A stretch of DNA of 64,000 nt from Patescibacteria group bacterium. Lineage in GTDB: Bacteria; Patescibacteriota; Minisyncoccia; Minisyncoccales; RBG-13-36-15. Below are positions 1-59,281 of the stretch, in pieces. A program made the position numbers and the translations under genes. Each line of letters starts with the position of its first letter. Position 1 is the first letter of the stretch. The notes below the pieces were generated by a model. That model was not told where the DNA came from and did no database searches. It saw only the letters and a program-made list of their open reading frames with translations. The DNA is taken from NCBI GenBank assembly GCA_022574775.1, contig JACZRI010000002.1, positions 74,303-138,302 on the forward strand. Direction: 5' to 3'.

Positions 1-425
1 TCTATTCCAAAAAGTGAAATCTTTTTTTGTGCTAAAAATTCTGCGGCATCTCCGTCAAGATAAATATAGTTATCATAAAATTTCTTGAAACCTAAGAGAG
101 AGTTTTTCGTTTTTACCAAAATCCGCTCTCCTTTTTTAATATTCTCTTTTTCTAGGTCTTCAACCTTTATTGACTCTTTGACTCTAGTCATATCAAATAC
201 CCGGCACTCCCCTATGACCTTCTTCAAATCTATCTTATCAACTCCAAAACCTTTTTTGAAAACGTGCTTCGGGACATCTATGTGAGTCGCTGTATGAGAA
301 CCAAATTTAATCTCAGAATAAGTAGAAGTTTTTCCGTATATAGTTTTGATATTAACCTTAGGATTACCAGGATAAACTACGGTCTTTTCATCAATAGGCA
401 AAGAAATATCAATTATTTTTTCCAT
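1..425 (-). CDS. cyclase-family protein (kynurenine formamidase-like), 3' end outside window
   Basis: Own minus-strand translation from ATG at 425: MEKIIDISLPIDEKTVVYPGNP...FGSHTATHIDVPKHVF. HxxTHxDxPxH-type motif of the putative cyclase/arylformamidase family. ORF runs off the left edge and is not in the ORF track. Confidence 0.65.
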   Translation of the reverse strand, partial: MEKIIDISLPIDEKTVVYPGNPKVNIKTIYGKTSTYSEIKFGSHTATHIDVPKHVFKKGFGVDKIDLKKVIGECRVFDMTRVKESIKVEDLEKENIKKGERILVKTKNSLLGFKKFYDNYIYLDGDAAEFLAQKKISLFGI

Positions 426-4759: not shown

Positions 4760-5827
4760 TTATTTGTAAAGTTCTGTTTGTGGATAGGCGGCCGTCCAAC
4801 TAAACCAGAATGACGAAAAAGGATTGATACGCTCTTCTTGACCATCTGGCAATCTTTTAAACACTCTCACTACATCAAGTTCTCTATCATGCCGCAAGAT
4901 AATAGTGGTGCCTTGAAAAACATCCTCCACCATACCTTTTTCTTTTACTGCATCAACATGATATGCCTTAGCTTTTTCGTTAATCACAATCCCGAAGACA
5001 AACGCATCGTTTGGCAATCGAGTATCAGTAGGCTTTGCGAGCGAAAGCGCCAAGTTTGTGGTTGAAAAATAGTCTCCGTAGGGACTGGAGCCATAAAAGC
5101 GAACGGCTCCAGTGTCTTTTGAGAGAACTTTGCCATCTGGGTGTAAGTTCTTCCAATTGCCATAACGAACCTGATCAGACGGTAATACTTTGAGTTTTGT
5201 TCCAGTCATTTCTCCAACTGCGGCTTCCCCTAAAATTTGTGGCCAAAGGCTATCTGTCTTTCTATCATACATCACTAAATTTGACTTCCAAAGCTTTCCT
5301 GAAGTTCCAAACTCAACTCTCTCGCCTTTCACCAAAGGATCAAACACATATCCGGTGAGACAAAGAGGACAATACGTCACCAAAATTCGCTCTCCCTCAA
5401 CAATATCATTTACAATCTCGTGCCACACGATAATCTGGTAGGGATAAAAACGGTGCGTATTTCCTCTAAAAAAAGCAACACCTGGCTCCTCGTCTTTGAG
5501 CCACTGATTTGCTTCTCCAATAGAAATGAATTTTGGATTATCAATAGAAGGAATGCCGTCTTTTGGAGGCCCTCCACTAATAATCTCTTCTAATGGAATG
5601 CTGTGTTTAACTCCGTCAGTTACCATGATTTCTTTTTCGATTAGCACAATTTCTTTTTCGCCCTCTTCGGTGATAATTTCTTCTTCTATGATAATTATTT
5701 CTTCTTTTGATTCTCCCTTTGGCAAGTTAAACCGCTCCCCTCCAAATCTCTGAAAAAGCAAAAATCCAAGTCCCGCAAGAATTAAAATTAAAATAATAGT
5801 ACTAAAAATCTTCATTTGAATTTTCAT
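4760..5827 (-). CDS. DUF3179-domain protein
   Basis: N-terminal TM and DGIPSIDNPKF ... TYCPLC motifs typical of DUF3179. The track start at 5839 is GTG. I prefer ATG at 5827, which forms an ATGA overlap with the upstream reading frame. Confidence 0.75.
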   Translation of the reverse strand: MKIQMKIFSTIILILILAGLGFLLFQRFGGERFNLPKGESKEEIIIIEEEIITEEGEKEIVLIEKEIMVTDGVKHSIPLEEIISGGPPKDGIPSIDNPKFISIGEANQWLKDEEPGVAFFRGNTHRFYPYQIIVWHEIVNDIVEGERILVTYCPLCLTGYVFDPLVKGERVEFGTSGKLWKSNLVMYDRKTDSLWPQILGEAAVGEMTGTKLKVLPSDQVRYGNWKNLHPDGKVLSKDTGAVRFYGSSPYGDYFSTTNLALSLAKPTDTRLPNDAFVFGIVINEKAKAYHVDAVKEKGMVEDVFQGTTIILRHDRELDVVRVFKRLPDGQEERINPFSSFWFSWTAAYPQTELYK

Positions 5828-27101: not shown

Positions 27102-28151
27102 ATGAAAATCTTACAAATAGCGCCTCCTTGGATACCAGTTCCCCCCATTACATATGGCGGAACAGAATTAGTTATTTCCTGGCTGACCGAAGAATTAGTG
27201 CAAAGAGGGCACGACGTTACCCTTTTGGCCTCGGGAGACTCCAAAACCTCGGCTAAACTCATTCCTATCTGGCCTAAATCACTCTGGCGAGCGAATCTTT
27301 CAACTCCCCATGCAGTTTTTGCTTTGATTTATGAAAAATTAGCTCAAATACAAGAAGAATTTGATATCATTCACGACCACTGTGAATTCTATACCGCCCC
27401 GTTTTTTCCCTTACTAAAAAAACCTCTGGTTTCCACCATTCATCATCCAATGTACGAGGAACTCATAATTTTATTCAAGAAATTCCCCCGAATACATTAT
27501 GTGGCAGTTTCTAAAAACCAGAGGAAATCTGCTCCTGGAGTAAATTTTGTCAAAACTATTTATCACGGCTTGCCAATTACGCAATACCCCTTCAACCACA
27601 AACCTCAAGATTATCTTTTATGGCTATCAAAAATATCGCCTGGAAAAGGACCTGCTGAAGCCATAGAAGTTGCAAAAAAGGCAAAGGAAAAACTGATTAT
27701 TTCTGGAAATATTTTGAAAGAGTATGGAGATTATTTTGAATACAGACTGAAACCCTTAATTGATGGAAAGCAAATTCAGTTTGTTGGAACGTCAGATTTT
27801 GAGAAAAAAATTGAGCTTTTTAAAAATGCCAAAGCCTTTTTATATCCTGTCAGAAGACCAGAGCCATTCGGTTTAGTTGTGATTGAAGCAATGGCCACAG
27901 GCACCCCGGTTATTGCCTACAAAACGGGCGCGATGTCAGAGCTTATCAAAGATGGAAAAACCGGCTTTTTGGTTAATAATCAGGAAGAAATGATAGATGC
28001 TTTAAAGAAGATAAATAAAATTGACAGAATTGACTGTCGGAGGCATGTCGCAAGAAAATTCTCTCTAAAAAAAATGGTGAATAAATACGAGGCTCTTTAC
28101 AATACTATTTTAAAAGATTCTAAAAAAAATAATCATGAGAAAAAAACTTAA
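27102..28151 (+). CDS. GT4-family glycosyltransferase
   Basis: N-terminal GGTELV and a C-terminal EPFGLVVIEAMATGTPVIA...G.TG motif, characteristic of retaining GT-B GT4 enzymes. Confidence 0.9.
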   Translation: MKILQIAPPWIPVPPITYGGTELVISWLTEELVQRGHDVTLLASGDSKTSAKLIPIWPKSLWRANLSTPHAVFALIYEKLAQIQEEFDIIHDHCEFYTAPFFPLLKKPLVSTIHHPMYEELIILFKKFPRIHYVAVSKNQRKSAPGVNFVKTIYHGLPITQYPFNHKPQDYLLWLSKISPGKGPAEAIEVAKKAKEKLIISGNILKEYGDYFEYRLKPLIDGKQIQFVGTSDFEKKIELFKNAKAFLYPVRRPEPFGLVVIEAMATGTPVIAYKTGAMSELIKDGKTGFLVNNQEEMIDALKKINKIDRIDCRRHVARKFSLKKMVNKYEALYNTILKDSKKNNHEKKT

Positions 28152-28166
28152 AATTGCACAAATCTT

Positions 28167-28305
28167 CGCTTCGCCAAGTCTAACTTGGTTTCGCTCCCCA
28201 GACACCTCTCGGTTTCTGGCTCTCCTTCGCTCCCGCTCAGTCGCTGTTTTCCTACACGGGAAAACACCCAGTTTTCCCGACCCCTTTCTGCAATTTGGGC
28301 AATTA
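28167..28305. repeat. GC-rich hairpin element, copy in the GT1/GT2 junction
   Basis: Contains GGGAAAAC-ACCCA-GTTTTCCC (28258-28278) and is colinear in reverse orientation with 50895-51000. Flanked by duplicated GT2 5' ends (28135-28163 and 28368-28396). Confidence 0.75.
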
Positions 28306-28367
28306 ACTAAGTTTTTATATCACTTAATAATTTTTAATTTAGGGATTATTAAATATTCAAAAAAAAT

Positions 28368-29438
28368 ATGAGAAAAAAACTTCGAATTGCCCAAATTGCC
28401 CCTTTATGGTTTGCCATTCCTCCGAAAAAATATGGAGGAATTGAAAGAATTGTCTCATTTTTAACAGAAGAATTGGTAAGAAGAGGTCATGATGTAACTC
28501 TATTTGCCTCTGGCGATTCAAAAACGAAGGCGAAACTAATTTCGGTTTATCCGGAATCTTTAATAAAAGCTGAATACAACTGGCAAGATCCAGTGTGGAA
28601 TTTAGAAAATTTATCAGAAGTTTTTAAAAAAGCAAACGATTTTGATATTTTGCATTCTCATCTAGATTTCTGGACTTTGCCATTCCAAGATTTAACTAAA
28701 ACACCCGTCCTGCATACTTTACATAATCAACTTTATAAAGCATCTATAACTAGAGAAGGTGAAAGGAAACCGGCCAGAATTCAAATCTTTGAGAAGCACA
28801 AGAAAGAAACATCGGCTGTTTTTATTTCTAAGTCACAAAGGTTAAAATCGGCTGTAAAATTTCCTCAAAGCTGGATAATTTATAATGGAATAGATATCTC
28901 TAAATTTAAATTTAATCCAAAACCGCAGAATCATTTTATCTGGATTGCGCGAATTGATCCCTTTAAAGGAATTGAGAATGCAATAAGAGCTGCGGAAATT
29001 ACCGGAGCAAAATTATTATTAGCCGGCAGACTTGATCCAAATAAAGAGGAATATTTTAAAAAGAAAATTAAGCCTCGCCTTTCAAGGAAAATTAGATACG
29101 TAGGAGAATTAAGCCAAAATGAACTTTCTGAGTTCTATGGGTCAGCTCGAGCCCTTCTTTATCCCATTGAATGGGAAGAGCCATTCGGATTAGTAATGGT
29201 GGAGGCTATGGCTTGCGGTACTCCGGTAATTGTTTTTGACCGAGGATCTGCCAAAGAAGTAGTTAAAAACGGCGAATCCGGTTTTGTAGTTAAAAATATA
29301 GAGGAAATTGTAAAAGCAATGAAAAAAGTTGATCAAATTGATAGATTAAAATGTAGAAAAAGAGTAGAAAATCATTTCGCTTACCAAAAAATGGTTTCAA
29401 AGTACGAAAAACTTTACTATAAACTTATAAAAAAATGA
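28368..29438 (+). CDS. GT4-family glycosyltransferase
   Basis: EEPFGLVMVEAMACGTPVIV...GESGFVV motif. Confidence 0.9.
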   Translation: MRKKLRIAQIAPLWFAIPPKKYGGIERIVSFLTEELVRRGHDVTLFASGDSKTKAKLISVYPESLIKAEYNWQDPVWNLENLSEVFKKANDFDILHSHLDFWTLPFQDLTKTPVLHTLHNQLYKASITREGERKPARIQIFEKHKKETSAVFISKSQRLKSAVKFPQSWIIYNGIDISKFKFNPKPQNHFIWIARIDPFKGIENAIRAAEITGAKLLLAGRLDPNKEEYFKKKIKPRLSRKIRYVGELSQNELSEFYGSARALLYPIEWEEPFGLVMVEAMACGTPVIVFDRGSAKEVVKNGESGFVVKNIEEIVKAMKKVDQIDRLKCRKRVENHFAYQKMVSKYEKLYYKLIKK

Positions 29439-47824: not shown

Positions 47825-50800
47825 TCAAAATGCAACCCTCTTACCCATAAACACTGGCTTCAAATATTTTCCAGTATAGCTTTTTTTATTTTTTATTACA
47901 TCTTGTGGCAAGCCTTCAACCACAATTTTGCCGCCTCCCTCCCCTCCTTCAGGACCCAAATCAATTATCCAGTCAGCATTTTTTATTACATCTAAATTAT
48001 GTTCTATGATCAAAACGGTGTTCCCCATATCCACTAATCCACGCAAAATCCAAACTAACTTTTTGATGTCGTCTGGATGAAGCCCAGTAGTTGGCTCATC
48101 TAAAATGTATAATGTTTTCCCTGTTGCCTTTCTGGAAAGCTCGGTGGATAATTTTACTCTTTGCGCCTCTCCTCCAGAAAGAGAAGGAGCTGGTTGACCA
48201 AGATGAATATAGCTTAAGCCAACTTCATTTAAAGTTTTTAATTTCTGGGAAATGCTTGGTATTACCTTGAAAAACTCTAAGGCTTCTTCTACTGTCATTT
48301 CTAAAACCTCTGAAATATTTTTTCCTTTATACCCAATAGACAGGGTTTCTTTATTAAATCTTTTTCCTTTACATTCTTGGCATTCCACATAAACATCTGG
48401 TAAAAAATACATTTCAATCTTTTTCACTCCCTGTCCTTCACAAACTTCACATCTCCCGCCCTTAATATTGAAAGAGAATCTGCCAGGCAAGTAGCCTCTG
48501 ATTCTTGCCTCTTTTGTTTTGGAAAAAAGATCCCTGATATGGAAAAAAGCTCCGGTGTAAGTTACCGGATTAGATCTTGGAGTTCTTCCAATTGGAGATT
48601 GGTTAACTAGAACCATTTTATTTAAATTTTCCCAACCTAAAATATTTTTATGTTTTCCGGGTTCTTCTTTGGTATTGTAAAATTTTTTTAAAAGCGCGCG
48701 AGCCAAAATATCATTCATTAAAGAACTTTTTCCAGACCCTGAAACTCCTGTGATGCAAATAAACTTACCCAGGGGAATCCTCACATTGATATTTTTCAGA
48801 TTGTGCTCTTGAGCCCCTTTGATAAGTAGGAAGTTTGAAGTCTTGGAGTCTGAAGATCGTTTCGTTTCTTCATACGGTTCGGCTGAGCTCACCGAAGTCT
48901 TCGCACTTCGTACTTCAACCTTTTTCCGACCTGACATATATTCTCCAGTTAATGTCTTAGCTTTTAATAATTCTTTAGGTGTCCCCTGAAAAATAACTCT
49001 TCCGCCATGCTTCCCGGCTCCTGGACCAATATCAATTATCCAATCTGCAGCTAAAATAGTTTGAGGATCATGTTCAACCACACAGATTGTATTTCCCAAA
49101 TCTCTCAATTTTTTTAGGATCTTTATCAATCTTTGCTGATCTCTTGAGTGCAGTCCGACTGAGGGTTCATCTAAAATATATAATACTCCCGACAATTTTG
49201 ACCCAATTTGGGTCGCTAACCTTATTCTTTGTTCCTCTCCACCTGCTAAAGTTCCTGTTTTTCGATTACAGGTTAAATAATTTAAACCAACATCAATTAA
49301 AAATTGCAAACGATTAACAATTTCTTTCACAATCGGCAGAGCGATTTTTAAGTCTGAAGCATGAAGTCTGCTGGATCCAAAGGAAACTCCCTTGAGGGCT
49401 GCGCCTGAAGATCTCTTTTTCGTTTCTTTATACTTTGTACTTCGTGCTTCGTATAATCCTTCAAAAAATCTTTTTGCCTTATCAATACTCACCACTACCA
49501 CTTCATCAATAGACTTCCCTGCCACAGTAACCGCCAAGGCCGCATGATTTAATCTTTTTCCCATGCATGTCTCGCATTTTTTTTTAAACATATATTGTTC
49601 AATTTCTTCCCTGGTGTAATCTGAATCTGTCTCTCGATATCTCCTTTCTAAAGAGGGAATAACTCCTTCAAAACTTGAATTTGGTATTTCTTGTTTTGCT
49701 GTGCCTCCCAGCACCGAGCTCTGCTCTGGTGCTGGGGTACTTCGTATTTCCGACTTGGCAGATTCGCCGTATAAAATTAAATCAATTATTTTCTTGGGAA
49801 GTTCTTTGACTGGAGTGTTGAGAGAAAAATTACACTTTTCTGCCAATCCGGCAAGCTGCAGCCAGAAATAACTCTGGCGGCCCAATCTATGAGATGCTCT
49901 CATCCAGGGACGTATAGCCCCCTCTTCAATGGTTAAATTTAGGTTAGGAATGACTAATTTTGGATCCACCTCTAATTTTTCTCCCAATCCCTGGCAAGAT
50001 AGACAAGCTCCGTAAGGGGAATTAAAAGAAAAAAGTCTTGGTTCAATCTCGGGAAGCGAGATTCCGCATTTTTCACAGGCGAAATGCTCACTGAATATCA
50101 GATCACTAAAAGCCTGAAGGTTTCTTCTTTGTTTCTTCGCACTTTGTACTTCGTGTTTTGTACTTACTATCGTAGTCCCTTTCCCCAATTTCATGGCGGT
50201 TTCCACTGAATCTGCCAACCTTGACCGATCCAAATCTTTTTCAATTTTCAACCTATCAACCACCACTTCAATGGTATGCTTTTTCTTGCGATCCAACATT
50301 TTTTGCAAAGCTTCTTCAATCCGATATAATATCCCGTCAATTCTTACTCTAACAAATCCTTCTCTTTGAATTTCTTCTAACACTCCAAGATGCTCACCTT
50401 TTCTACTTCCGATCACAGGTCCTAAAATCGTAATTTCTTTTCCTACGAATCCCTGACCCGTAATCTGATCTAAAATTTGATCAATTGTCTGGCAAGAAAC
50501 CGGCTTTTTGCATTTGGGACAATGAGGTTTCCCTATTCGCGCGAATAGGAGACGAAGGTAATCATAAATTTCTGTAATCGTGCCTACTGTTGAACGAGGA
50601 TTGCTGGCTGCTTTTCTCTGGTCAATGGAAATTGCAGGAGAAATTCCTTCAATCCTTTCTACGTCCGGCTTATCCATTACCCCTAAAAACTGACGGGCAT
50701 AGACAGATAAACTTTCCACATAGCGGCGCTGGCCTTCAGCATACAAAGTATCAAAAGCTAAAGAACTCTTGCCAGACCCTGAAATCCCTGTAATTACCAC

Positions 50801-50884
50801 CAGTTTATTTTTCGGGATATCCAAATCAATGTTCTTTAAGTTATGGACTTTAGCTCCTCTGATTTTTATATAGTTATTTTTCAT
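47825..50884 (-). CDS. uvrA: excinuclease ABC subunit A
   Basis: Two ABC modules ([20 protein letters not shown]; LSGGE signatures) and zinc fingers. Start at [11 protein letters not shown]; the track N-terminal extension is repeat-encoded. Confidence 0.95.
48829..48920. repeat. heptamer/palindromic repeat inside uvrA (site 4)
   Basis: Coding strand: GAAGTACGAAGTGCGAAGACTTCGGTGAGCTCAGCCGAACCGTATGAAGAAACGAAACGATCTTCAGACTCCAAGACTTCAAACTTC. Encodes [28 protein letters not shown]. Confidence 0.75.
49349..49456. repeat. heptamer/palindromic repeat inside uvrA (site 3)
   Basis: ACGAAGCACGAAGTACAAAGTATAAAGAAACGAAAAAGAGATCTTCAGG...CTTCATGCTTCAGACTT. Encodes [36 protein letters not shown]. Confidence 0.75.
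49683..49760. repeat. GC-rich hairpin segment inside uvrA (site 2)
   Basis: CCAGCACC-GAGCTCTGCTCT-GGTGCTGG flanked by an ACGAAGT-type unit. Encodes [25 protein letters not shown]. Confidence 0.55.
50112..50165. repeat. heptamer/palindromic repeat inside uvrA (site 1)
   Basis: ACGAAGTACAAAGTGCGAAGAAACAAAGAAGAAACCTTCAGGC. Encodes [16 protein letters not shown]. Confidence 0.7.
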
Positions 50885-50894
50885 AAGAAAAATT

Positions 50895-51055
50895 AGAGAG
50901 GGGTCGGGGGAACTGGGTGTTCCCCGTGCAGGAAAACAGGCTCGAGCACTCAACGGCTTAAGTGCTCGAACGTTAGAAACCGTGGGTGTCTAAAGAGCGG
51001 TGTTAGTCCCGAATTAAAGTCGGGACGTGCCGCGACTCGGGCATGATTAAGTCCT
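50895..51055. repeat. GC-rich hairpin element, copy in the uvrA/trxB divergent intergenic region
   Basis: GGGGAAC-TGGGT-GTTCCCC (50907-50925), then TCGAGCACT...AGTGCTCGA and GTCCCGA...TCGGGAC hairpins. Colinear with the copy at 28167-28305. Confidence 0.75.
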
Positions 51056-51102
51056 CTATTATAGTTTAAATTCCCAAAAAAATCAAGCGTAAAAAAAAGG
51101 AG

Positions 51103-56803: not shown

Positions 56804-57025
56804 ATGGAAAAAATCTTGTTAATCTCACAAATTATAGTATCAATTCTATTGGTTGTTTTTATTTTATTACAGCAAAGAGGAACAGCTCTAGGATCAGCCT
56901 TTGGTGGAGGTGAAGGAGGAGGATTTTATGGAACGAGACGGGGAATCCAGCAAAAAATCTTTTGGGGATCAATCGTCTTAGGAGCCCTTTTTATCATTTT
57001 AGCTTTATTAAATCTTATAATCTAA
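56804..57025 (+). CDS. secG: preprotein translocase subunit SecG
   Basis: Two TM segments with the LLQQRGTALGSAFGGG motif. Start at MEKILL (alternative ATG at 56798). Confidence 0.8.
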   Translation: MEKILLISQIIVSILLVVFILLQQRGTALGSAFGGGEGGGFYGTRRGIQQKIFWGSIVLGALFIILALLNLII

Positions 57026-57026
57026 A

Positions 57027-57130
57027 AAATATAAAGCTGAAATGATAAAAAGGCAGAAAAGGGTTGGGGAAACTGGGTGTTTCCCCATAGCGGAAATATT
57101 AAAACCGAAGGGTTTTAAGGAGTAAAACGA
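57027..57130. repeat. GC-rich hairpin element, short copy at the secG 3' end
   Basis: GGGGAAAC-TGGGT-GTTTCCCC (57066-57086). Flanked by 41-bp direct repeats at 56986-57026 and 57131-57171 (one mismatch) that duplicate the secG 3' end. Confidence 0.8.
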
Positions 57131-57265
57131 CCTTTTGATCATTTTAGCTTTATTAAATCTTATAATCTAAATATGCGCCTTGTAAACTCGCGCAATCCTG
57201 AGCTTGTCGCCCTTCAATGCGATTCAGGGCGACCCTGAACTTTGTTGAAGGATTGAAGGATTCAA

Positions 57266-59281
57266 ATGGTTTCTCAATTAAGAAAATTTAAATTAGTTCC
57301 TCAAGAATTAGGAAAACTTCCAATATTCTCTCAATGGAAACAAGTTTCTAAGGTTCTCAAAAGAGAAGAAAAAATTGCTCTTTCTATCTTATTTTTTTTG
57401 GTTTTTGCGTCTGGGACTTTTTTTGTTTTAAGCTTTTATTTCCATAATACAGAAATTCAACCTGCTATTGGAGGAGTTTACACCGAGGGAGTCCTCGGTA
57501 AGCCACAATTTATCAATCCAATCTATGCCCAATCTTCTGATGTAGACAGAGATTTGACTGAACTCCTATTTTCCGGATTATTAAAATACAATGAAAAAGG
57601 AGAGATAATTCCTGATTTGGCGCGAGAATATAAAATTGAGGATGAAGGCACAATTTATGAAATTTATTTAAGAGATGATATATTATGGTCAGACGGGAAG
57701 CCTTTTTCTGCAGAAGACGTGATTTTTACCATAAAGATAATCCAGGACCCAGACTACAAAAGCCCCCTTCGGGCTTCCTTATTAGGGGTCACAGTAGAGA
57801 AAATTTCCAATGCGAGAGTTCGTTTCAAATTAAAGAAACCTTATCCTCCATTTTTAGAAACCTTGACTTTAAAGATTTTACCCAAGCACATCTGGCAGGA
57901 TATCCCTCCTCGAAATTTTCCTTTAGCCGTCTTTAACCTTCAACCAGTTGGAACAGGTCTTTTTAAATTCAAGAGCTTAACTCAGGATCAATTAGGTTCC
58001 GTTCAATCTATCGTATTAGTAAAAAACCCGAATTATTTTGGGAAAAAGCCATTTCTTAGGGAAATTACCTTTCGTTTTTTTGACAAAGAGGAAGATTTGA
58101 TTACAGCTCTGGAAAAAAATAGAGTGATGGGAATATCATCAATCTCCCCTCAATCATTAAAAGATGTAAACCAGGAAGAATTTAAAATCTATCGGCTTTC
58201 TTTTCCAAGATATTTTAGTCTCTCGTTCAATCTAAAAAATTCCGATATACTCGCCAAAAAAGAAACGAGGAAAGCTTTGAACTATGGAACCGATAAAGAG
58301 GAAATTATTAAAGAAGTTCTTCTTGGTGAAGGGAAAGCAGTTCACTCCCCATTTCTCCAAGAAACCTCTTCAATCCCGCCCTCTTCAGAAATTTATCCAT
58401 TTAATCTGGCAAAGGCAAAAGAAATTCTAGAAGAAGCCGGATGGGAAGAACAAAGTTCCGGCAAAAGAGCAAAAATAATCAAACAAGAAATTGAAACCTT
58501 GTTTAGAACTGATCTCGAATTGGAGTCGCAAAACACAGAGGTCAGAAATCTTCAGGAATGCTTAGCGAAAGACAGTAAAATCTATCCTGAAGGAGAAATC
58601 ACGGGCTATTTCGGTCTAAAAACGAAAAGTGCGGTAACTAAATTTCAGGAAAAGTATGCTAAAGATATTTTAGACCCATGGGGGTTCACCAAAGGGACCG
58701 GAATAGTAAGCAAAACGACAAGGGCTAAACTTAATGAAGTCTGCGTTGAAACCCCAACTGAAAAGTTGCCGTTAAAACTTTCGTTAATCACGGTTGACCA
58801 GAAAGAGCTTTCCCAGGTAGCGGAATTATTACAGAAACAATGGATTCAATTAGGGGTGGATCTTGAAATTACAAAAATCAATCTTTCAACTCTCCAGCAA
58901 GATTATTTAAGGCAGAGAAATTATGAAATCTTACTCTTTGGCAAAGTAACAGGATTGATAATAGACCCTTATCCTTTTTGGCACTCGTCTCAAACTGAAT
59001 ACCCTGGGTTGAATCTGTCAGGCTATAAAAATAAAGAAGCGGACAGTATCTTAGAGGAAGCTCGCAAAACCCTGAACGCAGAAGAACGAACAGAAAAATA
59101 TGAAAGACTCCAGGAAATTTTAATTGCTGATGCTCCAGCTGTATTCTTATACACTCCAAACTATCTCTATCTTGTATCAAAAAAAATTCAAGGAATAGAA
59201 GAAAAAATCATTGCCGATCCTTCTAAGCGGTTTATTGACATCGGAAAATGGTATATTAAAACCAGAAGGGTCTGGAAGTAA
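57266..59281 (+). CDS. ABC transporter substrate-binding protein (family 5, peptide/nickel type) with inserted peptidoglycan-binding domain
   Basis: SBP_bac_5 pattern (ARQYKIEDEGTIYEIYLRDDILWSDGKPFSAEDV-type region), with a PG_binding_1-like segment (VRNLQECLAKD...GYFGLKTKSAVTKFQEKY) at about 58520-58740. Confidence 0.8.
   Translation: MVSQLRKFKLVPQELGKLPIFSQWKQVSKVLKREEKIALSILFFLVFASGTFFVLSFYFHNTEIQPAIGGVYTEGVLGKPQFINPIYAQSSDVDRDLTELLFSGLLKYNEKGEIIPDLAREYKIEDEGTIYEIYLRDDILWSDGKPFSAEDVIFTIKIIQDPDYKSPLRASLLGVTVEKISNARVRFKLKKPYPPFLETLTLKILPKHIWQDIPPRNFPLAVFNLQPVGTGLFKFKSLTQDQLGSVQSIVLVKNPNYFGKKPFLREITFRFFDKEEDLITALEKNRVMGISSISPQSLKDVNQEEFKIYRLSFPRYFSLSFNLKNSDILAKKETRKALNYGTDKEEIIKEVLLGEGKAVHSPFLQETSSIPPSSEIYPFNLAKAKEILEEAGWEEQSSGKRAKIIKQEIETLFRTDLELESQNTEVRNLQECLAKDSKIYPEGEITGYFGLKTKSAVTKFQEKYAKDILDPWGFTKGTGIVSKTTRAKLNEVCVETPTEKLPLKLSLITVDQKELSQVAELLQKQWIQLGVDLEITKINLSTLQQDYLRQRNYEILLFGKVTGLIIDPYPFWHSSQTEYPGLNLSGYKNKEADSILEEARKTLNAEERTEKYERLQEILIADAPAVFLYTPNYLYLVSKKIQGIEEKIIADPSKRFIDIGKWYIKTRRVWK

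Follow-up and report, generated by a model that had tools for sequence, protein, structure and literature searches.

A duplicated secG terminus beside a small structured repeat element in Patescibacteria

The Duplicated End of secG

Patescibacteria make up a large share of bacterial diversity and have tiny, gene-dense genomes, and to our knowledge few mobile elements have been described in them. The subject here is a short repeat element at the 3' end of secG in a Patescibacteria group bacterium (assembly GCA_022574775.1), within a stretch of 64,000 nucleotides (nt) of contig JACZRI010000002.1 (positions 74,303 to 138,302, forward strand), referred to below as the window. A 41-nt direct repeat, CCTTTTTATCATTTTAGCTTTATTAAATCTTATAATCTAAA, occurs there at 56986-57026 and again at 57131-57171 with a single mismatch (T to G at repeat position 7); it occurs exactly twice in the window, and shuffled sequence is expected to yield 0 occurrences. 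The first copy consists of the last 13 codons and the stop (57023-57025) of a gene of 73-75 aa that matches Pfam SecG, and the two copies are spaced by exactly 104 nt (57027-57130), in which no open reading frame (ORF) was found. A preliminary description of the locus had reported this duplication of the gene terminus, stop included, and the hairpin in the insert, and all of its coordinates were confirmed. It had overlooked an inverted arm, X' (ATAAAGCTGAAATGATAAAAAGG), whose sequence is that of repeat positions 1-23, reverse-complemented, and which is part of the element. With this arm included, the locus reads X1 (the secG end), a spacer S, X', a core and X2:

56986..57026, plus strand: X1, the repeat copy contiguous with secG (13 codons, stop and 1 extra nt); the functional gene end
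57027..57030, plus strand: S, the 4-nt spacer AAAT separating X1 from X' (other copies have 0-64 nt)
57031..57053, plus strand: X', the inverted arm (reverse complement of X[1..23]), pairing with X1 at 22/23 positions (one G.T) or with X2 at 21/23
57054..57130, plus strand: core of the minimal type, 77 nt, structured: CAGAAAAGGGTTG, hairpin 1, ATAGCGGAAATA, hairpin 2, GGAGTAAAACGA
57066..57086, plus strand: hairpin 1, GGGGAAAC-TGGGT-GTTTCCCC
57099..57118, plus strand: hairpin 2, TTAAAACC-GAAG-GGTTTTAA
57131..57171, plus strand: X2, the second copy of the secG end, non-functional, with TTG (Leu) in place of the invariant Phe codon

As a single strand, the locus has two alternative folds, either X1:X' or X':X2 enclosing the core, and compared with shuffled sequence, both have much higher stability (z-scores of -5.5 and -7.5).

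That such a duplication might be a collapsed or expanded repeat, i.e., an artefact of assembly, had been raised at the outset, and short repeats do misassemble in metagenomes. Two Logan contigs break off precisely at the 34 nt common to both secG copies, as expected of a true repeat in a k-mer graph. The ENA assembly of the organism (a 22-kb contig, L133) is identical base for base across 56960-57270, although it and the Logan assemblies may share one source sample and are not biological replicates. The lone mismatch anchors each copy to its own, different flank, which means that the repeat was neither collapsed nor expanded, and more than 25 other genomes, among them the complete chromosome CP174359, show this layout as well. 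An artefact is therefore excluded for practical purposes, its odds being negligible.

The surroundings of secG were compared with those in about 65 relatives (SecG 36-79% identical), in which the same SBP gene follows secG almost directly, mostly with a gap of -40 to +40 nt, as against 240 nt in the window, and the element was absent from the site in all of them. The TTT codon at repeat positions 5-7 of X1 encodes a Phe found in 55/55 relatives, whereas X2 has Leu, which identifies X1 as the working gene end and X2 as a dead copy. By analogy with other sites described below, the 145-nt block 56986-57130 would be the insert, and the sequence from 57131 onward the old locus.

Several further features of the locus were recorded. 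Between X2 and the start of the SBP gene lie 94 nt (57172-57265) that are missing in most relatives (gap about -40 to +40 nt) and unique within the window; their GC-rich hairpins overlap (GTCGCCC...GGGCGAC and TTCAGGG...CCCTGAA, the second of them terminator-like), and they may be a remnant of another small insert. On the minus strand at 57065-57087, hairpin 1 followed by ACCCTTTTCT gives a weak intrinsic-terminator score, with a T-rich tail lengthened by the complement of X'. An intrinsic terminator was rejected as an account of the element, whose own strand has no U-tract and whose reverse strand gives only this weak terminator-like match.

A Family of Structured Cores

When one genome per species was scanned with a degenerate pattern of 25 nt, 52 loci were returned, nearly all in Patescibacteria and commonly with several copies per genome. 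The element is found in Parcubacteria/Paceibacteria, Saccharibacteria, and Nealson-, Portnoy-, Zambryski-, Yanofsky-, Kaiser-, Doudna- and Wildermuthbacteria, and the chromosome CP174359 carries three copies; a match in Thermoflexus was set aside as chance. A covariance model was then built on 22 minimal cores and produced 65 matches in 100 sources; in all, more than 60 copies came to light in Patescibacteria genomes. The secG core scores 84 bits (E=5e-21) against covariance model R1. The model also recovered additional copies without the TGGGT loop, and the loop sequence is thus a subfamily trait.

Across the family, the core is about 80-200 nt long and consists of two hairpins joined by purine-rich strands, in the conserved order 5' strand CAGAARGGGGTC, hairpin 1, joining strand CGTGGAGGAA, hairpin 2 (family form AGAAACC-GNRA-GGTTTCT) and 3' strand RGGAGCG...CGAC. 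Long copies have GC-rich hairpins inserted at two or three places, and the secG copy represents the minimal form. In a model-based alignment, 91.5% of cells were paired, compared with 79% in shuffles, and changes on both sides were seen in 12/16 pairs. Hairpin 1 was paired in 99.8% of cells, with both-side changes at 4 pairs, and in hairpin 2 such changes occurred at 8/8 pairs. The G.U pairs lie on the strand reading GGGGTC... (GGGGTCGGGG...), and the opposite strand would have C.A or A.C mismatches at the same places; this points to a core that acts as a folded single strand of GGGGTC... polarity, either RNA or single-stranded DNA.

Attempts to match the core to a known structure were negative. 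Rfam 15 at the gathering threshold identified only 3 tRNAs in the whole window and no match to the element, permissive Rfam scans of two element copies gave only chance hairpin matches, and mapping of the core by hand onto hammerhead and hepatitis delta virus-like layouts produced no fit. A viral origin was also rejected: the strict pattern had 0 matches in viral contigs, and a looser 5' pattern had five loci there (best 19.8 bits), with a different hairpin and no flank repeats, which were treated as chance. One full-scoring copy (91 bits) is in locus L013 (JADFQH010000057.1), labelled as a Methanobacteriota archaeon; either a Patescibacteria contig was mis-binned here, or this is a rare case of a copy beyond the group. 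The joining strands (e.g., 57090-57124 in the window) contain two family-conserved Shine-Dalgarno-like motifs, GGAGGAA and AAGGAG, which no start codon follows at secG.

Shared Layout and Target Sites

The arrangement at secG is shared by much of the family. A flank repeat was defined as sequence just 3' of the core that recurs 30-120 nt upstream of the core, and the catalogue of hairpin modules and flanking duplications that the preliminary description had proposed holds three copies in the window and, family-wide, flank repeat scores of at least 14 in 27/53 copies, as against 1/209 mismatched-flank controls. Repeat lengths range from 11 to 75+ nt. The inverted arm ends 0-2 nt before the motif CAGAARGG and is complementary to the repeat from the repeat's first base, pairing with X across 10-23 nt or more with the core in the loop. 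Where X1 and X2 differ at informative positions, X' agrees with X1 and not X2 by 27 to 2 (21 to 2 in anchored cases only). A suspected mismatch hot spot at X2 positions 5-8 was dismissed, since the rate there (10.6%) was like that at positions 9-24 (10.1%; Fisher p=0.86).

The sequences used as X1 are ends of conserved genes. At a dozen loci, the gene concerned is an intact tRNA gene in the same orientation as the element; X1 is its 3' end and starts just after the T-loop, and the tRNA-linked X' includes the T-loop complement. The protein-coding targets include:

rpsI 3' end: seven loci from different classes (...APQWSKR*)
rpsJ 3' end
fusA 3' end: inserted at one and the same point in two loci; the repeat of one is 75 nt and perfect
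rplN (L005) and lepA (L015) 5' ends: with the element in antisense orientation
uvrC and SBP-gene 3' ends

At the coding targets inspected by eye, the repeat usually stops at, or about 1 nt from, the stop or start codon. When ORFs within 2.5 kb of all copies were clustered, no mobility gene recurred among them, and a linked protein partner was rejected on the same evidence, the recurrent neighbours being only translation factors, ribosomal proteins and RpoA.

Two further sets of loci are notable. In the neighbourhood formed by uvrC, a holin-like gene, secG and the SBP gene, relatives carry the element at differing ends (uvrC, secG or SBP), which indicates frequent turnover; the copies there are:

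L053: ~2133-2211
L067: 2204-2276
L100: 1980-2052
L091: 3863-3932
L025: 14-71

The second set is in the DATIBQ genome, where near-identical cores lie downstream of three tRNA genes (Phe, Gly and Thr; loci L008, L020 and L022), and the arms' agreement with the local tRNA is limited to the T-loop plus a few more bases. The tRNA-linked cores end in GTGAGAT rather than CGAC.

Some loci hold more than one copy. In L030 (2649-2900), two successive cores follow rpsI, each then followed by its own copy of the rpsI end, and in L012 (350-510) there are three direct copies of a tRNA 3' end, one degenerate, in a tandem or nested insertion. In L026 (~5400-5700), a perfect repeat of 67-75 nt takes in a portion of X, then the spacer, X' and the core's first 13 nt (..AGAGAAGGGGGTC), and its second copy runs on into unrelated sequence; the locus resembles a second element in tandem from which nearly the whole core has been lost.

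Gene Ends of Different Origin

If X2 were simply a duplicate of X1, the differences between the two should have accumulated without regard to the reading frame. The codon differences summed over the coding loci were instead 40 synonymous, 17 nonsynonymous, 6 stop-to-stop and 0 stop-to-sense (38, 14, 5 and 0 after removal of one locus counted twice). Individual loci illustrate the pattern:

L045, rpsI: 7/7 changes synonymous
L033, 3' end of an ORF whose gene was not identified: 9/9 synonymous, and stop to stop
L005, rplN: 4/4 synonymous
L091, SBP gene: 4/4 synonymous, and stop to stop

Judged by these substitutions, X1 and X2 appear to differ as orthologues do, unlike the copies of a neutrally decaying target-site duplication.

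The origin of the two ends could be followed where metagenome loci, fetched for synteny, provided close relatives that differ in occupancy. The SBP 3' end is filled in L091 and empty in L100, L097 and L074. The L091 X2 and the sequence downstream of it (...ACA AAA AGA GTT TGG AAA TGA AAACAAAAAATAGAAAGC...) have the arrangement of the empty relatives, and its X1 (...ACT AAA CGA GTT TGG AAA TAA) resembles that of another lineage, L110. The converse occupancy is found at the uvrC 3' end, filled in L100 and empty in L091, L132, L110, L097, L074 and L095; here X2 encodes ...AISYHKKLREKKAFN*, the clade's own type, and X1 encodes ...ALAYHLKLRKKRLIE*, a type like that of uvrC in the window. At both filled sites, X2 and what follows it have the native arrangement, and X1 is a foreign-type end with a different stop codon. 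The comparisons indicate that the inserted block at these sites comprises a foreign replacement gene end, spacer, X' and core, and that the native end was displaced downstream as X2. In L008 and L009, the spacer is weakly similar to the sequence after X2, which suggests that the block may also carry the downstream flank of its donor.

The search for empty sites that had been proposed for secG therefore succeeded in part: filled and empty relatives were obtained for the SBP and uvrC ends, and for secG itself only the distant relatives described above. The suggestion in the preliminary description that the repeat is an att-type duplication of a gene end that keeps the gene intact is supported by those two sites and by the flank repeats of the family.

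A Proposed Route of Spread and Its Alternatives

These analyses have established a structured core with site-specific arms, inserted at recurring sites together with a replacement terminus that leaves the gene intact, and flanked by repeat copies with differing histories. As to how this came about, we favour, at a probability of roughly 0.55, the reading that the secG repeat was left by one copy of a small protein-less selfish element of Patescibacteria that spreads by homology-dependent integration. Since the block brings a gene terminus and is inserted just before the native one, the gene would never be interrupted, a situation seen at the two other loci and presumed for secG by analogy. The terminus carried by the block also means that the gene body and the duplicated terminus can serve as homology arms. 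Spread between lineages would occur via RecA-type recombination after DNA uptake, or a Campbell-type event, with homology supplied on the left by the gene body or X1 and on the right by the duplicated terminus, and the block could enter any genome that has the conserved gene, whatever its downstream sequence. Such integration would explain why conserved termini are chosen, why the repeat stops sharply where the gene does, why X1 and X2 diverge like orthologues, and why some copies are tandem or nested (L030, L012 and L026). It would be an example of selfish sequence living in gene-dense genomes without breaking genes, by means of its own replacement gene end, and the repeat copies, as orthologues from different hosts, would be readable traces of gene flow between lineages.

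The inverted arm may have parts to play in this process. Pairing of X' with X1 or X2 would form a long stem with the core at or beside its tip. More speculatively, an X':X1 hairpin in a single strand might tuck the imported terminus away and leave X2 free for the resident terminus, a possible reason that X' tracks X1. The X'-core-X2 unit is a palindrome with a loop and might form, on colonisation of a new site, a single-stranded intermediate of the fold-back or hairpin kind; together with the long and variable duplications, it suggests a fold-back, hairpin or target-primed step. The T-loop complement common to the tRNA-linked arms suggests that pairing by X' helps in the choice of target.

A number of observations weigh against integration by homology as a full account. 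No closely related empty secG site was found, and the native secG copy is argued by analogy: exact-protein look-ups for an empty allele returned only contigs identical to the window sequence, and a metagenome scan only relatives with at most 60% identity for the gene neighbouring secG. The 1-nt difference between the secG copies would fit gene conversion or a recent event at the locus no less than import, and a sliding-identity comparison of L091 and L100 resolved no imported tract upstream of X1. Recombination alone explains neither the strong conservation of the ~80-nt core nor new target specificities, a difficulty made concrete by the near-identical cores at three tRNA genes of one genome (L008, L020 and L022). 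The simple scheme is also incomplete for tRNA-linked copies, whose X' agrees with the T-loop and few other bases and whose core has GTGAGAT at its end. Finally, the pairing data would favour neither RNA nor single-stranded DNA as the active form.

These difficulties leave room for a bolder proposal, which we put forward as a tentative one with the odds against it, that the family is a new class of protein-less mobile element, in which an RNA or single-stranded DNA core of ~80 nt, with a re-writable X' that finds gene termini by base pairing, inserts by fold-back or hairpin formation through its own catalysis or an unlinked host enzyme, harmlessly by virtue of the spare gene end. If true, this would be the dominant small mobile element of Patescibacteria. 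Somewhat less probable again, though a serious rival to integration by homology, is a version with dedicated chemistry, in which X' is a guide that pairs with the target strand at the insertion point and the element is inserted by a core ribozyme or by an unlinked enzyme (a reverse transcriptase, an HUH or tyrosine recombinase, or an RNA-guided recombinase), the long variable duplications coming from staggered nicks or from target-primed synthesis with fold-back. The precise placement of X', with its end 0-2 nt short of CAGAARGG and its pairing with X starting at the first base, is what would be expected of a guide, as are the stem formed by X'-core-X2 with the core in its loop, the strong and strand-specific conservation of the core, and the three DATIBQ copies, with their arms sharing the T-loop complement; duplications that are long and variable (11-75+ nt) are also found in target-primed reverse transcription. 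Set against these, there is no enzyme gene in or near any copy, the core matches no ribozyme family in Rfam, and simple target-site duplication predicts neither the orthologue-like X1 and X2 nor a distal repeat boundary at the gene end. Were X' truly to direct insertion, it would represent a compact protein-free (or single-enzyme) means of DNA placement at a chosen sequence.

Two more conventional explanations are unlikely. The element might be a host cis-regulatory RNA, i.e., a switch in the 3' untranslated region or leader whose core senses a signal while X' alternates between X1, masking the gene end, and X2, closing the core, and whose repeats are kept for pairing. The two mutually exclusive long helices predicted, far stabler than shuffles, the covariation in a conserved structured domain, the Shine-Dalgarno-like GGAGG and AAGGAG motifs in the core, and the position of most copies downstream of, and co-oriented with, highly expressed genes would all suit such a switch. 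Yet the repeats reach far past the paired part (up to 75 nt, perfect), X2 retains codons and stop codons, and the targets have no functional theme except conservation. A purely regulatory RNA is made improbable above all by the occurrence of copies in both orientations relative to genes, with antisense copies at gene starts (at 28k in the window, rplN in L005 and lepA in L015), and by filled and empty alleles among relatives in which the filled site has a foreign gene end. Rather less probable still is an ordinary non-autonomous transposon akin to a MITE (miniature inverted-repeat transposable element) with a target-site duplication, or the scar of a deleted larger island. Either would be small, multi-copy, intergenic or terminal, flanked by direct repeats and absent from the same site in relatives, as the element is; however, the copies have no conserved terminal inverted repeats, their arms being site-specific, the duplication is neither fixed nor short in length, the second copy diverges like a coding orthologue and not a decaying duplicate, and no transposase or integrase is nearby (2.5 kb). 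What lies between the repeats is in every case this conserved core, which is therefore the element itself and no scar.

Comparison with Known Systems

The closest anatomical parallel is with integrative islands and prophages, which reportedly target the 3' ends of tRNA, tmRNA and protein genes and carry a replacement end in attP. As in these, the direct repeat of the element spans from the insertion point to the gene end, the element-borne copy is functional and the native end displaced, the two copies diverge like orthologues, and tRNA 3' ends from beside the T-loop are favoured; the replacement end and the displaced native end were found as direct repeats at the SBP and uvrC genes, and at secG by analogy. 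The differences are that the insert is 100-300 nt with no integrase or cargo, that it has many unrelated targets and no single att site, and that it has an inverted arm and a conserved structured core. No site-specific integrase was found in the 104-nt insert, and no recombinase recurs within 2.5 kb of the copies. The term "att" thus describes the anatomy of the element, not its mechanism.

The inverted arm has its counterpart in the attP(+) site of phage CTX and the attC sites of integrons, which are folded single-stranded recombination substrates acted on by XerCD or IntI at a fixed target (dif or attI). There too, an inverted arm folds one strand into a duplex copy of the target, and integration leaves flanking direct repeats with an inverted copy beside one end. 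In contrast, the stem of the element varies in sequence from site to site, its targets are unrelated (tRNAs, rpsI, fusA and secG), and no recombinase was identified.

Small repeats are familiar in bacteria, e.g., MITEs, REP/BIME, ERIC, Correia and the Rickettsia palindromic elements, which have element-specific terminal repeats and short or no target duplications. The element is like them in being ~100-200 nt, non-coding, multi-copy, hairpin-folding, resident in compact genomes, and tolerated at or inside genes. We know of none among them that has a copy of the neighbouring gene's terminus or a site-specific arm, and the lack of shared terminal repeats and of a short fixed duplication argues against a MITE.

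Homing of group I and II introns likewise involves a segment complementary to the exon at the insertion point, recurring conserved sites across lineages, and donor flanks. The element, though, is too small, the gene is uninterrupted and needs no splicing, and introns come without a duplicated gene end. With the gene uninterrupted (secG is complete to its stop and the upstream tRNAs are intact), and with no Rfam intron model matching in the window or in the permissive scans of copies, which leaves it without a catalytic core, the element is not an intron. Target-primed retrotransposition of the non-LTR/SINE type and the opening of hairpin ends (as for P-nucleotides) share with it long variable duplications and a palindromic X'...X2 junction, which could come from fold-back or an off-centre hairpin nick, but no reverse transcriptase, 3' tail or endonuclease was found, and the coding-like divergence of the copies would be unexplained.

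Two further candidates were discarded. The repeat differences involve all bases and are mostly synonymous, and there is no reverse transcriptase among the recurrent neighbours, which does not fit a diversity-generating retroelement. The TIGR-Tas arrays, dual-guide RNAs associated with the candidate phyla radiation, consist of 36-nt units in arrays with Nop-domain proteins and are unrelated. Nothing describing the element was found in the open-access papers and preprints searched, although it may be described elsewhere, and it is probably best regarded as a small non-autonomous integrative or repeat element of unusual make.

Other Copies in the Window and Nested Repeats

The covariance model identified exactly three copies in the window and nothing else above noise. 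The features of the two further copies, and the model matches of all three, are as follows:

57052-57124, plus strand: model match of the secG copy, 84 bits
28292-28228, minus strand: model match of the second copy, 61 bits
50892-50948, plus strand: model match of the third copy, 43 bits
28135..28396, minus strand: second copy, at the start of the glycosyltransferase gene 28368..29438
28396-28368, minus strand: X1 of the second copy, the reverse complement of the glycosyltransferase gene start
28304-28290, minus strand: X' of the second copy, 15 nt, 100% complementary to X1
28290-28164, minus strand: core of the second copy
28163-28135, minus strand: X2 of the second copy, a pseudo-start (MRKKLKIAQI vs MRKKLRIAQI)
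50857..51072, plus strand: third copy, at the uvrA start (ATG, minus strand, 50882-50884)
~50857-50867, plus strand: X1 of the third copy, its pairing with X' retained
50888-50898, plus strand: X' of the third copy
50895-51036, plus strand: core of the third copy
~51049-51072, plus strand: X2 of the third copy, decayed and gapped

An orthologous copy is present at the uvrA start in a related genome (L025), and the insertion of the third copy is therefore old.

The pseudo-starts and pseudo-ends of the element mislead gene callers, and its repeats break k-mer assemblies. The plus-strand ORF at 28135-28371 is a misleading one of 78 aa that begins at the duplicated glycosyltransferase start, and the minus-strand uvrA ORF at 47825-50953 is over-extended by 23 codons upstream through the core, from a TTG, the true ATG being at 50884.

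A different GC-rich repeat was encountered in the secG-SBP spacer of L071 (~2793-2950) and L078 (~2719-2950), where it forms CGAGCGAAGCGAAGG hairpins. Hairpins of the GAGCGAAGCGA type from this spacer also form the optional insertions within long copies of the element, and the GC-rich repeat may be a second small mobile module nested in it.

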